This document shows, in pieces, positions 31,995 through 62,725 of a stretch of 64,000 nucleotides of DNA. Below the pieces are notes generated by a model that saw only the letters and a list, made by a program, of their open reading frames with translations, ran no database searches and was not told the DNA's origin. The DNA is from an uncultured Fibrobacterota bacterium (GTDB lineage: Bacteria; Fibrobacterota; Chitinivibrionia; Chitinivibrionales; FEN-1185): positions 96,001-160,000 of the forward strand of contig CAVWBU010000041.1 of assembly GCA_963753345.1 (NCBI GenBank), in the 5' to 3' direction. The translations under genes and the position numbers were made by a program. Within the stretch, counting starts at the first letter, position 1. Each line of letters opens with the position of its first letter.

Positions 31995-32153
31995 CGCGCG
32001 TTAGGGGCGACTGGAGGCCGTGCCAGAGCACGGTGCCGCCCGGACCCGGCCCTGTGGGCCATAGGGCCGTGGCGGCCGGAGGCCGAAGGCCGAGACCAGA
32101 AGGAGAACCGACCCCCAGTAGAGCCATGCGGCTCTACTGGGGGAAACGCCTAA
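31995..32153 (-). repeat. Structured repeat family F (Flavo-1-like ends), copy B
   Basis: Reverse complement reads GGCGTTT-CCCCCAGTAGAGCC/GGCTCTACTGGGGG-TCGG...GGTCTCGGCCTTCGGCCTC...CCTCCAGTC...CCTAACGC. Confidence 0.8.
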
Positions 32154-32177
32154 ATTCCAACACGGAATTATTATTTA

Positions 32178-32831
32178 TCAACCAAACATCTCGCCCTCAA
32201 CCATCGCGCACAGGCAATGGTACACGGGCTGGTGGAGCTGCTGCACCTTGTACGTAACCTCTTCGGGAACGCACACAAGGACGTCGCAGCCGAGGTCTTT
32301 CACTTTGCCGCCGCTCTTGCCGGTAAGGCACACCACGCCAAGCCCGAATATCTTTGCCACCATGATGGCGCGGACCACGTTTTTTGAACTGCCCGACGTG
32401 GTGAGAGCCAAAAGCACGTCCCCTTTCCTGCCGTAGCCGAAGACCTGCTGCGCGAAAATCATCTCCGCGTCCTCGTCGTTCGCGATGGCGGTGAGGAGCG
32501 GCGAATGCGCCGACAGGGAAACGGCGGGAAGCTGGCGCTGGAGGTGCCTCAGGAGAAACTGCTTGTCATTGAGCGACGACTGGCTTGCCTTGATTCTTTC
32601 ACAATCCGCGGTCGTCAGCTTGCGTTTGAGCGCGAATTTGTTCATCAACTCGCCCACGATGTGGTCGGCGTCGGCCGCGCTGCCGCCGTTGCCGCATGCG
32701 AGCACCTTGCCGCCGTTCTTGAAGCAGGCGACGAGCAGGTCGAACGCCCGTACAATATCGCCTTCGAACGGCTCAAGCGCCGGATAGGAAGTGAGGCATT
32801 CGTCAAGATACTGCTTTGCGGATGATTTCAT
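32178..32831 (-). CDS. gmhA: Phosphoheptose isomerase (SIS domain)
   Basis: GGKVLACGNGGSAADADHIVGEL, TAIAND, FAQQV, LTTSGSS.NV, LTGKSGG, QQLH. Confidence 0.8.
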   Translation of the reverse strand: MKSSAKQYLDECLTSYPALEPFEGDIVRAFDLLVACFKNGGKVLACGNGGSAADADHIVGELMNKFALKRKLTTADCERIKASQSSLNDKQFLLRHLQRQLPAVSLSAHSPLLTAIANDEDAEMIFAQQVFGYGRKGDVLLALTTSGSSKNVVRAIMVAKIFGLGVVCLTGKSGGKVKDLGCDVLVCVPEEVTYKVQQLHQPVYHCLCAMVEGEMFG

Positions 32832-32867
32832 GGGGTACTGCTTTCCAAACAAGAATAAGTAATTGAG

Positions 32868-33005
32868 TTGGGCGTTACCCCGCTACGCGGGGTCGGCCCT
32901 CCTTACGGTCTCGGCCTTCGGCCTCGGGCTGCCTACCACAAAGGCCCTGCGGGCCGTGGTCAGGCAGCACCGCGCTCCAGCGCGGCCTTCAGTCCTGCCT
33001 AACGC
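32868..33005 (+). repeat. Structured repeat family F (Flavo-1-like ends), copy C
   Basis: TTGGGCGTTA-CCCCGC TAC GCGGGG-TCGG...GGTCTCGGCCTTCGGCCTC...CAGTCCTGCCTAACGC. Confidence 0.8.
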
Positions 33006-33079
33006 AAAAGACACAACCTGCAATAATCTACCGCTCTTTCGCTCTTAACTGTCAACTGCCAACCGTCAACTGTCAACTT

Positions 33080-34916
33080 CTATTCTCTAGGCAATTCGCG
33101 CACCGCCCCCCTGTCGGCCGAGGTGGTGAACAGCGCGTACGCCCTGAGCGCCTCGGAAACCACGCGCCTGCGTTTCGGCTTGAACGCGTTTTTCCCTTTT
33201 TTCAATTCGGCCTTCCTGCGCTTGGCGAGCTCTGCCGCGGAGAGTTTCACGTTGACTTTCCGGCCGGGTATGTCGACCTCGATGATGTCGCCGTTTTTGA
33301 GCAGGCCCACGTCGCCGCCCGCGGCGGCTTCGGGAGAAACATGGCCTATTGACAAACCGGACGATCCCCCGGAGAACCTGCCGTCGGTGAGCAGGGCGCA
33401 GGTGTCGCTCAGATGCATGGACCGCAGATACGACGTGGGATACAGCATTTCCTGCATGCCGGGCCCGCCCTTGGGGCCTTCGTGGATGATGACTACAACG
33501 TCGCCGGCCTTCACCTTGTGCCCGAGGATGCCTTCCGCGGCCTGGTCCTGCGAATGGAACACCTTTGCCGGACCGTGAAAAGCGGAACATGGACGCCGCC
33601 ACGCCGGCGGCTTTCACCACGCAGCCTTTCCGGGCGATATTGCCGAAGAGCACGGCAAGCCCGCCGTCTTTGCTGTAGGGAGTTTTTGCCGACCGGATGC
33701 AGCCTTTCTGCCGGTCTTTGTCGAGTTCCGGATACATCGTGTCCTGGGAGCCGAGCGCGAGGTTGCGCTGGCCGCCGCCGGGCGCGCTGCGGCAATTCTC
33801 GATGGCAAAGGGCAGCACCCGCGGGTCGAGAATGTCGTTCTGCCGGATCACTTCGCCGAGGCTGGCTCCGGCCGCGTGCGGCACGGCGCCGTCGACAAGG
33901 CCGGCGCGGGCAAGCTCGCCCATGATCCCCATGATGCCGCCCGCGCGGTTGACGTCCTCGACATGGAAATGGGAACTCGGCGCCACCTTGCACAGCACCG
34001 GGATCTTCCTCGAGAGCGCGTCGATGTCCTTCATGGTGAAGGCGACGCCCGCGGCATGCGCGATGGCCAGCAGGTGCAGCACGGTATTGGTCGAGCCGCC
34101 CATGGCGATGTCGAGGCTCATGGCGTTGACAAAAGCCTTTCGCGTCGCAATGGAGCGCGGCAGCACCGAGTCGTCGCCCGTTTCGTAATACGCATTTGTC
34201 ATTTCGACGATGCGGCGCGCCGCGTTTTCAAAGAGGCGCAGCCTGTTGGTGTGCGTCGCCACAACGGTACCGTTGCCGGGCAGTGCAATGCCGAGGGCCT
34301 CGTTGAGGCAGTTCATGGAATTGGCGGTAAAGAGCCCGGAGCACGACCCGCACGACGGGCATGCGGCAAACTCGATGTCGCGGATGTCCGCGTCCGGCAC
34401 CGCGCTGTCGGCCGACATCACCATGGCGTCGATCAGGTCGTACTTTCTTCCCTTCCACGTGCCGGCCTCCATGGGCCCGCCCGAGACGAAAATCGCCGGC
34501 ACGTTAAGCCGCATCGCGGCCATCATCATGCCGGGGGTTATCTTGTCGCAGTTGGAAATGCAGATCATGGCGTCGGCCATGTGGGCGTTCATCATGTATT
34601 CGACGCTGTCGGCGATGAGCTCGCGCGACGGCAGCGAGTACAGCATCCCGTCGTGGCCCATGGCGATGCCGTCGTCGATGGCGATGGTGTCGAACTCGGC
34701 CGCGAAACACCCCTGCGCCTCGATGATCGCCTTGATGCGCTGCCCGATGTCGTGGAGATGCACGTGCCCCGGCACGAACTGCGTGAAGGAATTGACAATT
34801 GCAATTATCGGCTTCCCGAACTGCTCCTCTTTCATGCCGTTGGCCCGCCAGAGGCTCCGGGCCCCGGCCATGCGGCGGCCGGCCGTGGTTGTCGCGCTGC
34901 GCAAGGTATGCGTCAT
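33080..34916 (-). CDS. ilvD: Dihydroxy-acid dehydratase (one frameshift in a T-run near 33578)
   Basis: [47 protein letters not shown]; second frame [28 protein letters not shown]. Confidence 0.95.
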
Positions 34917-61303: not shown

Positions 61304-61418
61304 GGGGCACTCCTTTGGGCATTTTGTTCGGGATGTGGTGGGCGAACCATTAAAAATAATTAGTACGGTATGGACGGGGAGGAAAAGAGATTCAAAGAGA
61401 TCCAACGAGGTCAAATGC

Positions 61419-61585
61419 TGGGCGTTACCCCAAGTGGAGGCGCAAGGCCGTTTGCCTCCACTTGGGGTCGGCCGTCCTTCCGGTCTCGGCCTTCGGCCTC
61501 GGGCCGCCTCGGCCCTAGGCCGCAAAGCGGCCGGGTCCGGGCGGCATCCCGCTATGGCGGGACCTCCAGTCCTGCCTAACGCGCG
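61419..61585 (+). repeat. Structured repeat family F (Flavo-1-like ends), copy A
   Basis: TGGGCGTTA-CCCCAAGTGGAGGC/GCCTCCACTTGGGG-TCGG...GGTCTCGGCCTTCGGCCTC...CCTCCAGTCCTGCCTAACGC. Confidence 0.8.
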
Positions 61586-62040
61586 GCAGAGGAATACCCT
61601 TAAGTCAATTACTTCTTCTCACGCCAATCGGTATCTACAATAAATCAAGCAAGGACTCCTCTTTGAATTTGAAACTATTGAAGAACCCCGCCCCATGTGG
61701 CGGGGATTCTTCCATAGCTAAGGAAACAGAACAACAAATATTCGCCCGCTAACCCCCGCGCCAAGTCGCGGGGAATGCGCGGGCTGTGCTATTCAACTAT
61801 TTCTTTCTCGGTGCCCCCGCAGCCGAAGCTTCTTTCTCGCAGCCACATTTCTTGGGGGCTACCCACGAGGGGGTAGCGGAGGACCGGCGTGCGAAATAAA
61901 ACGTTCAGAGATTTGACGGCGCACGCCGGGCCGGAGCGAGGGGGAGGCCTCCCCCCATGTAAATTGCTGATTGCCGATATTTTCCCCGGATTATTTTTAT
62001 GATACAACAATTTCAAGTCTCACCAATAGCTGGAGCCTCC

Positions 62041-62563
62041 ATGCCTTTCTACGAATTCTTCTGCCCTGACTGCAACACGATTTTCACCTTCTTTTCGCGC
62101 CGTGTCAATACCGAAACAATCCCGGACTGCCCCTCGTGCAAAAAGAGAAAGCTTGATCGAAGGATCTCCCTGTTTGCCGTTGCCGGAAAAACAAAAAAGA
62201 ATGCAAGCGAAGACTCCGGCGACAAGGGCGAAGACGACCTTCCCGTCGACGAGGCAAGGATGACCAAGGCAATGGAGGCGCTTGCAGGAGAAGCCGAGCA
62301 CCTCAAGCGAGGACGACCCGCGCCAGGCCGCGAACCTCATGCGGAAGTTCTCCGACATGACAGGCCTTAAGTACACCGACAAAATGAACGAGGCGCTGAA
62401 CCGCCTGGAAACCGGAGAAGACCCTGAGGCCATTGAAGCGGAGATGGGCGACGCATTCGAAAACGAAGACCCGTTTATTCTGCCGGAGAAACAGGAAGGC
62501 GCGAAGAGTACAATATCAAAGAAGAAGCCGCTGAAAAGGGATGAGACAGTGTACGAGCTATAA
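62041..62563 (+). CDS. FmdB-family zinc-ribbon protein (frameshift near 62305)
   Basis: MPFYEFFCPDC...CPSC...RRISLFA; second frame DDPRQAANLMRKF..RLETGEDPEAIE. Confidence 0.85.
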
Positions 62564-62594
62564 TACAATGTTCGAAGATACGTCAGTCTTGGCG

Positions 62595-62725
62595 TTGGGC
62601 GCCTGCCCTGGGCACCGGTTCTCCTCCGAGCTCGGCTATTCGCCTCGTTGCCGGTCCACCCTATGCCTGGCGGCCGGGTCGGCCGGCAATCCCGCTTTGG
62701 CGGGACTCTCCGTCGCCCCTGGCGC
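62595..62725 (+). repeat. Structured repeat family F, divergent copy D
   Basis: TTGGGCGCC-TGCCC T GGGCA-CCGGTTCTCCT...TCCCGC TTTG GCGGGA...GTCGCCCCTGGCGC; same hairpin order as copies A-C. Confidence 0.6.

Follow-up and report, generated by a model that had tools for sequence, protein, structure and literature searches.

Four copies of an interspersed structured repeat (copies A to D) lie in the stretch of DNA analyzed here, a window of 64,000 nucleotides from contig CAVWBU010000041.1 (positions 96,001 to 160,000) of an uncultured bacterium of the phylum Fibrobacterota and the order Chitinivibrionales (assembly GCA_963753345.1). The core of the repeat has a branched fold of seven helices connected by unpaired linkers and is, in many copies, the 5' module of a longer composite. 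Directly observed are its copy number and structure, the covariation of its stems, its distribution among lineages, its modular build and its lack of tolerance for G·U; the element is a new member type among bacterial interspersed structured repeats, notable for an order-wide branched seven-helix fold. The explanation that we favor, with a confidence somewhat above even, is that of a non-autonomous, structure-dependent mobile DNA repeat family of the kind of the repetitive extragenic palindromes (REPs), bacterial interspersed mosaic elements (BIMEs) and REP doublets forming hairpins (REPINs), but much larger and more branched. A preliminary description, made from the sequence of the window, had proposed a four-copy element that resembles the Flavo-1 RNA motif and is either a non-coding RNA (ncRNA) or mobilized as single-stranded DNA (ssDNA).

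A branched fold with covarying stems

The fold consists of a closing stem (P1) around four arms: P2, whose length and sequence vary; P3, a small hairpin; P4-P4a-P4b, three stacked stems in one arm; and P5, a hairpin. These seven helices were annotated by hand on an alignment of 16 sequences, from which a covariance model of 142 model positions (R1) was built. R1 has 124 matches in 451 kb of the genome to which the window belongs (hereafter G000), all of them full length and each on one strand. In the resulting alignment 91.4% of 4500 stem cells hold standard pairs against 73.0% in shuffles, a score inflated by the fitting of the alignment to the model structure and by the relatedness of the copies; none of 500 shuffles reaches the observed value, and 39-44% of cells pair in a control with slid partners. 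Both sides of the pair change in 30 of the 38 pairs. The two ends of the core are likewise linked: among 342 copies GGCGTT occurs with TAACGC 214 times and GGCGCC with TGGCGC 99 times, with 5 cross-combinations. Among the variants of P2, only the long ones are GTAG...CTAC palindromes (21 sites, at least 11 of them placed in cores, vs 0 for a control pattern). Single copies B and D fold better as DNA than their dinucleotide shuffles, equally on both strands (z -4.1/-3.7 for B and -2.2/-2.1 for D on the two strands). RNAalifold found almost no structure in a global alignment of nhmmer columns, because the subfamilies differ in register, and the hand-annotated covariance model was used instead.

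All four window copies were placed by both R1 (89-140 bits) and nhmmer, which detects exactly four in the window, at the positions given in the preliminary description, and the common hairpin order and every compensatory stem quoted there can be read in their sequences, which have a mean column identity of 70% (MAFFT). The closing stem is GCGTT(A)/TAACGC in A, B and C vs GCGCC/GGCGC in D; the first hairpin differs in sequence among the copies and measures 4-14 bp; GCCGCC/GGCGGC in A and C is replaced by GCTGCC/GGCAGC in B; and the last hairpin is TCCCGC/GCGGGA in C and D, CCGTGC/GCACGG in A and CCGCGC/GCGCGG in B. The sequence GGTCTCGGCCTTCGGCCTC is invariant across A, B and C, as had been claimed.

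Copy number and modular composition

The element is not confined to four copies. An iterative nhmmer search of G000 (4.52 Mb, 55 contigs, 55.9% G+C) returned 404 core matches, 361 of them near full length, and a core is present in 345 of the 2205 intergenic gaps longer than 30 nt. The core is 140-170 nt long, begins with TGGGCG behind an A-rich leader and ends in ..GTCnnnCCT(AA/GG)CGC. Nor do the intervals of the preliminary description span the whole element, since they cover only the 5' module of a longer composite: in about 70% of 381 cores homologous DNA continues for ~250-270 nt downstream, and a tail module (CGGCA..GGAAATCTATTCAGTCAA..TTGCGCCAATCGG) adjoins the 3' end of the core in 235 of 245 tail matches. 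Core and downstream modules together amount to 110,680 bases, or 2.45% of the genome, and occur in mosaic architectures that include the solo core (118), the core with tail and distal block (92), the distal block alone (71) and many others. Of 69 tandem tracts of the GTCAAC type, 17 have a core at a distance of no more than 300 nt, and all 17 are on its 3' side and on the same strand. The nearest-neighbor identity of 342 full cores has a median of 93.2%, and 44 of the 342 have a twin of at least 98% identity elsewhere; some cores thus appear to have been copied recently. Recruitment of the C-terminus of a gene as the origin of the tail is ruled out by the absence of gene stop codons within 59 nt of the core 3' end.

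Distribution in the order

Of the 5 other genomes of the genus, a BLAST-type search detected the element in 4, and of 35 genomes of other genera in 0; with its own genome included, it is abundant in 5 of 6 genomes of the genus, and G003 is the sole one of the six in which it was not detected. R1 found it in 11 of 81 genomes of the order; 6 of these belong to 5 other genera and have weak matches of full length. A model rebuilt with these distant matches added (R2) was run on one other family (f5) only, where 9 of 41 genomes were positive, with 10-35 or more copies per genome in several genera. Presence differs between close relatives: G073 has multiple copies and its congener G072 none, and in one genus (g22) 4 of 6 genomes are positive.

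The distant copies retain the helix order and the unpaired linkers and have almost no helix sequence in common. Among 41 copies from other genera (40 distinct rows, 33 loci), 93.8% of cells pair vs 63.0% when shuffled, in an alignment likewise fitted to the model structure, with two-sided changes in 35 of 38 pairs. The linkers constant throughout the order are TGGGCG, CGG..CTCC..GG, TCGGT and CC.TC.GTC..CCT..CGC. A pattern running from linker to end, searched over one genome per species, gave at least 69 matches, and those listed are all in 6 assemblies, five titled Fibrobacterota, Fibrobacteres, Chitinivibrionales or Chitinispirillaceae and one titled 'uncultured bacterium'; among the matches listed, the element is thus exclusive to assemblies of Fibrobacterota type plus that one. 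No neighboring gene recurs at the 33 loci from other genera, and no published description of this repeat family was found in the literature searched, which did not cover subscription journals.

Flavo-1, or any other Rfam family, is rejected as an identification, Rfam 15 giving 0 matches at gathering score on the 64 kb and no Flavo-1 row at E <=10 on 31800-33200 or 61300-62800, where the other rows were at chance level. The 'new subtype' of the preliminary description therefore stands as a new, uncatalogued structured repeat family of this lineage and not as a subtype of Flavo-1.

Constraint on DNA or on RNA

A helix selected as RNA, on either strand, is expected to tolerate G·U and to purge A·C. 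The non-Watson-Crick cells of the G000 alignment comprise 46 G·T and 68 A·C (29 of the latter from one systematic column) vs 4067 Watson-Crick cells, and those from other genera 27 G·T and 21 A·C vs 1151. G·U is therefore not favored over A·C on either strand, and the pattern generally expected of a structured ncRNA is absent. Since G·T and A·C are about equally frequent on both strands, complementarity appears to be kept at the DNA level, which argues against RNA-level selection; alternatively, most mismatches may be recent and neutral. Of the two natures offered in the preliminary description, a DNA-level element, possibly mobilized as ssDNA, fits better than an ncRNA because G·T is as rare as A·C, copies number in the hundreds, the distribution is patchy and the neighboring genes are unrelated.

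One RNA and three DNA sequencing runs, all of them examined as contigs, have repeat bins far deeper than their flanks in both kinds of run and are uninformative on expression, strand and ends. The share of sampled words found in the runs is at most 0.34, and we therefore make no habitat claim beyond the run labels.

A probable mobile DNA element and its alternatives

Under the explanation that we favor, the fold would form in single-stranded or extruded DNA, and the folded element would be the substrate of a protein supplied in trans that copies or moves it into intergenic DNA; selection for mobility would then keep the stems Watson-Crick complementary and the unpaired linkers constant while the helix sequences drift. 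Three points are inferred here: the fold works in the form of DNA, the element moves, and an enzyme acts on it in trans. It is a doubtful further step that the whole seven-helix fold might be the substrate of an unrecognized structure-specific DNA-mobilizing enzyme of the Chitinivibrionales, for which a diverged protein like HUH or RAYT (REP-associated tyrosine transposase) or an unrelated protein would be candidates.

Comparison of species gives indirect evidence of mobility. Where one species has a gap with a core or composite, another may have only 14-86 nt of unrelated sequence (the gap of copy B, between ilvD and the SIS-domain gene, is 14 nt in G002), and in two orthologous gaps the core has opposite orientations in G000 and G001. 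The 5' flank shows a weak AAGAnT consensus (0.5-1.0 bit per position), the ends of the element pair only over GCGTT/AACGC or GCGCC/GGCGC (5-6 bp), and the strand of the element is the C-rich one in 197 of 345 cases (197:148, p 0.0097). According to crude gene calls (3092 genes, 78% coding), on which all context counts rest, the midpoints of 26 of the 404 core matches lie inside genes, and convergent gaps are enriched (116/364 vs 378/2205, p 7e-12).

Other observations weigh against this explanation. At three sites that are occupied in G001 and short in G000, neither a target-site duplication nor a clean junction was seen and the flanks beside the element do not align, so that insertion is indistinguishable from replacement; one of the short sites contains a small hairpin built from two inverted 5' ends of the element. 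The element has no long terminal inverted repeats, its boundary profiles lacking further inverted similarity, and no pair of its ends lies at a spacing like that of an insertion sequence (IS) around a gene, since the core-distal spacing has its peak below 300 nt and no further one at 0.8-3 kb; a parent IS with the same ends is rejected on this lack of IS-scale spacing. The orientation bias with respect to GC skew is much weaker than that reported for IS608-type elements. Large subfamilies have systematic mismatches, 29-46 of the 124 rows being unpaired at single positions of P2, P3, P4, P4b and P5, hence perfect pairing is not needed for persistence, and the scores of both covariation alignments are inflated as stated above. 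Furthermore, among 150 solo cores 93 point in the same direction as the upstream gene (p 0.004), at a median of ~50 nt (47-52 nt) behind it, and tailed copies in tandem gaps are oriented opposite to the genes in 83 of 113 (p 6e-7); a purely DNA-level parasite need not have such biases, which are the best argument for some transcript-level effect and are also compatible with selection against harmful orientations.

The partner enzyme belongs on the same side of the balance. No mobilizing enzyme was identified, PF01797 giving no match above its cut-off; an open reading frame (ORF) of 158 aa is RAYT-like (NF047646, 50.4 bits, E 2e-13, below the cut-off of 80; PDB 4er8, E 0.025). RAYT-like ORFs occupy 4 loci in G000, and relatives occur in 55 of the 81 genomes of the order: 12 of 17 carriers of the element vs 43 of 64 genomes that are free of it. 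There is thus no association between RAYT-like genes and the element in these sets, although some members of the element-free set may be misses, R2 having been run on family f5 alone. Three RAYT-like loci are complete: at the first a full core lies just past the 3' end, the second terminates inside a degenerate 5' stub of the element, and the third has neither. With a core in 16% of gaps, the core beside one such locus is not significant, and the flanks of the loci on contigs C35 and C27 hold no full element copy. RAYT as the partner is rejected on the absence of PF01797 matches above the cut-off and on the lack of co-variation of the RAYT-like ORFs with the element.

We consider it unlikely that the element is instead a multi-copy structured RNA, whether a co-transcribed stabilizer of 3' untranslated regions, a terminator, a protein-binding RNA or a small RNA, which has spread since its fold is useful. 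Such an RNA would account for an architecture with constant unpaired linkers across several families, for the CCTCC-type motifs in these linkers (the complement of GGAGG), for the position of solo cores behind co-oriented genes and the enrichment in convergent gaps, for a sub-variant in which a T run follows P5, and for the coverage of cores by contigs of one metatranscriptome run. It is at odds with the lack of preference for G·U over A·C and hard to reconcile with hundreds of copies present in all four gene contexts; Rfam is without a match, a scan of 61300-62800 detected no terminator-like site in or beside copies C and D, and the ratio of repeat to flank depth in the RNA run is about that of the DNA runs, as carried-over DNA or uniform read-through would give. 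A site domesticated by the host, with a binding or structural role for nucleoid proteins, topoisomerases or a site-specific ssDNA nuclease, as for BIMEs and Ssn-type hairpin repeats, and with mobility only in its past, is in our judgment quite unlikely. Linkers and ends kept order-wide while helices drift, GTCAAC tracts fixed in side and strand, and a long persistence in which, at the median nearest-neighbor identity given above, most copies are not recent would all suit such a site, and Ssn nucleases with cognate hairpin repeats are known (PMC11893778). Sister species entirely without the element (G003, G072, G042 and G046) and occupied gaps that differ between species speak against domestication, as does the want of an identified partner protein, and the published consensus of the Ssn-related repeats (SRM) does not fit the core in a comparison by eye only.

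Finally, the stems could be complementary through intrastrand template switching or gene conversion between arms or copies, in a neutral family of palindromes with no selection on structure. In agreement with this, only Watson-Crick pairs interchange, single-sided intermediates are rare (G·T and A·C each ~1-2% of cells) and both strands are equivalent. We regard this alternative as improbable, since it leaves unexplained the constant unpaired linkers, the fixed order of seven helices across families and the asymmetric, strand-specific sequence (124/124 R1 matches one-stranded and full length), and since subfamilies keep uncorrected mismatches in as many rows as given above.

Observations at RAYT-like loci and polymorphic gaps

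The 158-aa RAYT-like ORF lies at G000:C35:162288-162764 (L110:1498-1974), and its last ~15 codons are antisense in the degenerate 5' stub (TGGGCGTTCC...GGTCGG). Its relatives in other genomes have 200-290 aa, and the gene may have been truncated by the repeat. A longer RAYT-like ORF of 288 aa at G000:C27:259564-260427 (L205:665-1528) matches it in two separated pieces, between which GC-rich stretches of 22 nt are repeated at a spacing of ~45-70 nt, with weak model matches at L205 970-1206. At G000:C26:231358-231444 a small perfect hairpin of two inverted 5' ends (TTGGGCGTTCCGCCGC..GCGGCGGGGCGCCCAA) stands where G001 has a full composite, and the gap at L053:9979-10470 is likewise closed by such an inverted 5' end; the 5' unit of the element may thus occur as a REPIN-like doublet.

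Relation to known repeats and mobile elements

REPs are short, imperfect palindromes that share a tetranucleotide at the 5' end, GTAG in enterobacteria, and a REPIN is made of two inverted REPs that form one hairpin; the cognate RAYT gene is typically single-copy, has the repeat on its flanks and is distributed together with it. The element resembles these systems and their RAYTs (PMC2817692; PMC3116915) in its hundreds of extragenic, GC-rich hairpin copies and mosaic modules, its enrichment behind genes and in convergent gaps, and its compensatory stem changes. The likeness extends to the lack of terminal inverted repeats, the absence of a visible target duplication, the long persistence in a lineage and the presence of RAYT-like genes in the genome. 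It differs in having a unit of 140-170 nt with seven helices and a multi-way junction, compared with a 20-40-nt hairpin or two-REP doublet, and in that its RAYT-like genes are multi-copy (4 loci), are not flanked by repeats on both sides and do not track the element. Of the features that define REP/REPIN-RAYT systems, it thus has the hundreds of extragenic, vertically persistent copies and lacks both the form of the unit and a flanking, co-distributed RAYT.

Repeats of the ERIC, Correia, RUP, BOX and bcr1 types have terminal inverted repeats or are one long imperfect palindrome, and miniature inverted-repeat transposable elements (MITEs) leave target duplications. The element studied here differs from both in its end pairing of 5-6 bp, its branched interior and, at the three polymorphic sites compared, the absence of a visible duplication; neither the terminal inverted repeats of ~10 bp or more nor the parent IS that characterize a MITE were found. 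It is like ERIC/IRU, Correia/NEMIS, RUP, BOX and the bcr1-type repeats of the Bacillus cereus group (reviewed in PMC3184786) in being intergenic, 100-200 nt long and predicted to fold, in a possible co-transcription with its neighbors and in a modular, BOX-like build. The Flavo-1 RNA motif (Weinberg et al., 2010; PMC2864571) shares a multi-hairpin, repeat-like form and an origin in an environmental bacterial lineage. It belongs to a different phylum, and its covariance model gave no match at any threshold tried.

Single-strand transposition of the IS200/IS605 type involves strand-specific hairpin signals, no target duplication, a short 5' target sequence and a replication-linked orientation bias. 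The element has strand-specific hairpins, no target duplication that could be seen, a possible 5' preference in the weak AAGAnT consensus and a slight orientation bias with GC skew. It differs in that no full-length element with these ends and a TnpA was found, the bias is only 57:43 and the fold spans the whole element rather than two subterminal hairpins. An integron attC site has the inverse core (...AAC) at its 5' end and the core site (GTT...) at its 3' end; this identification is ruled out by the reverse order in the element, where either strand has GCGTT at its 5' end and AACGC at its 3' end. Ssn-related repeats have a degenerate published pattern and flank a small GIY-YIG gene, ssn; compared with that pattern by eye only, the GTC motifs of the core are followed by C, or preceded by G, where that pattern differs (PMC11893778).

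Copies and neighboring genes in the window

The features of the four copies are listed in Table 1. Beyond copy C, the repeat-like depth of metagenome contigs persists to ~62014, and around copy D a contig of run X2 skips 62508-62811 with other letters in between, which is not a clean empty site. The flanking genes in the window are ordinary and encode a SIS-domain protein, a dihydroxy-acid dehydratase, a DeoC/ribulose-phosphate epimerase fusion, a zinc-ribbon protein and an Ig-domain protein. No tRNA or tmRNA was found in the window (ARAGORN), and a promoter and terminator scan of 61300-62800 found no site inside the elements.

Table 1. Modules of the repeat in the window, with the evidence for each.
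Feature	Position	Strand	Evidence
Copy A, core (P1, P2, P3, P4, P4a, P4b, P5)	31996-32154	-	R1 132.0 bits; nhmmer 32136-31991
Copy A, P2, a 14-bp palindrome of GTAG...CTAC type	within 31996-32154	-	fold
Copy A, 3' tail module, downstream-consensus positions 1-99 (CGGCA..GGAATTCTATTCAGTCAA..CGCGCCAATCGG)	31900-31996	-	nhmmer, downstream profile, match 1497-1401 of the stretch starting at 30500; read from sequence
Copy B, solo core with short P2 and without tail	32867-33007	+	R1 140.1 bits; DNA fold z -4.08
Tandem tract CTGTCAAC-TGCCAAC-CGTCAAC-TGTCAAC, ~40 nt 3' of copy B	33049-33077	+	read from sequence
Copy C, core with long P2	61417-61584	+	R1 128.3 bits
Copy C, downstream modules: tail, optional hairpin block, ~120-nt distal block	61585-61915	+	330 nt, seeds a profile with 516 genome matches
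Copy D, solo core of the divergent GCGCC/GGCGC, TTGCCGG/CCGGCAA subfamily	62594-62727	+	R1 89.4 bits; nhmmer E 1.1e-16

Two gene models next to the copies deserve comment. Between copies C and D, the zinc-ribbon gene (Pfam Zn_ribbon_8) is divided into two overlapping ORFs in different frames, 61999-62370 and 62282-62563 (+), a pattern suggestive of a frameshift or of faulty assembly near 62290-62370. The longest ORF of the DeoC/ribulose-phosphate epimerase fusion (59702-61525, -) starts at a TTG inside copy C; its true start is probably further downstream, and automatic annotation may extend genes into these repeats as in this case.

Nested and unrelated repeats

A mini-hairpin module of 27 nt (CACCCCTTCGGGTGCTTCCAAGGGTCG), absent from the four window copies, has 100 genome matches to its 18-nt core (examples in G000 are L030:1794-1963, L009:1445-1613 and L024:390-560) and occurs at three different sites within cores of the element. 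Among the 70 matches listed, as judged by eye, ~25 stand after CCGGTC, ~13 after GGTCGGTC and 8 in the 3' strand of P4a, and in all three groups of sites the insert is followed by TC; ~11 further matches among these 70 belong to a different repeat that starts with GTGGGGGAGGTT. The module resembles a nested insertion with a preference for certain sites. Another repeat family (GTTGAAACCCTCCCCGGCGGGGGAGGG...) fills a further gap of the L053 region (L053:13051-13194, G000:C31), with 94-95% identity to copies in G001. The genome is thus host to several unrelated repeat families.

Implications

To our knowledge, published bacterial interspersed repeats take the form of single hairpins, of hairpin doublets or of sequences bounded by inverted repeats. 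The seven-helix unit differs from these in that its architecture and linkers are kept across families while every helix sequence turns over, and it occupies about one in six intergenic gaps in some genomes. It provides a natural test bed for distinguishing structural constraint at the DNA level from that at the RNA level, and with it the caution that strong covariation is by itself no proof of an RNA gene. For the organisms themselves, the repeat accounts for both the low coding density of these metagenome-assembled genomes and the breaks between their contigs, and it hints at a protein partner in a phylum with almost no cultured members. Should the whole fold indeed be the substrate of such a protein, this would be the first interspersed repeat in which a complex branched ssDNA fold, order-wide, serves as the mobility signal instead of a simple hairpin or inverted repeat.

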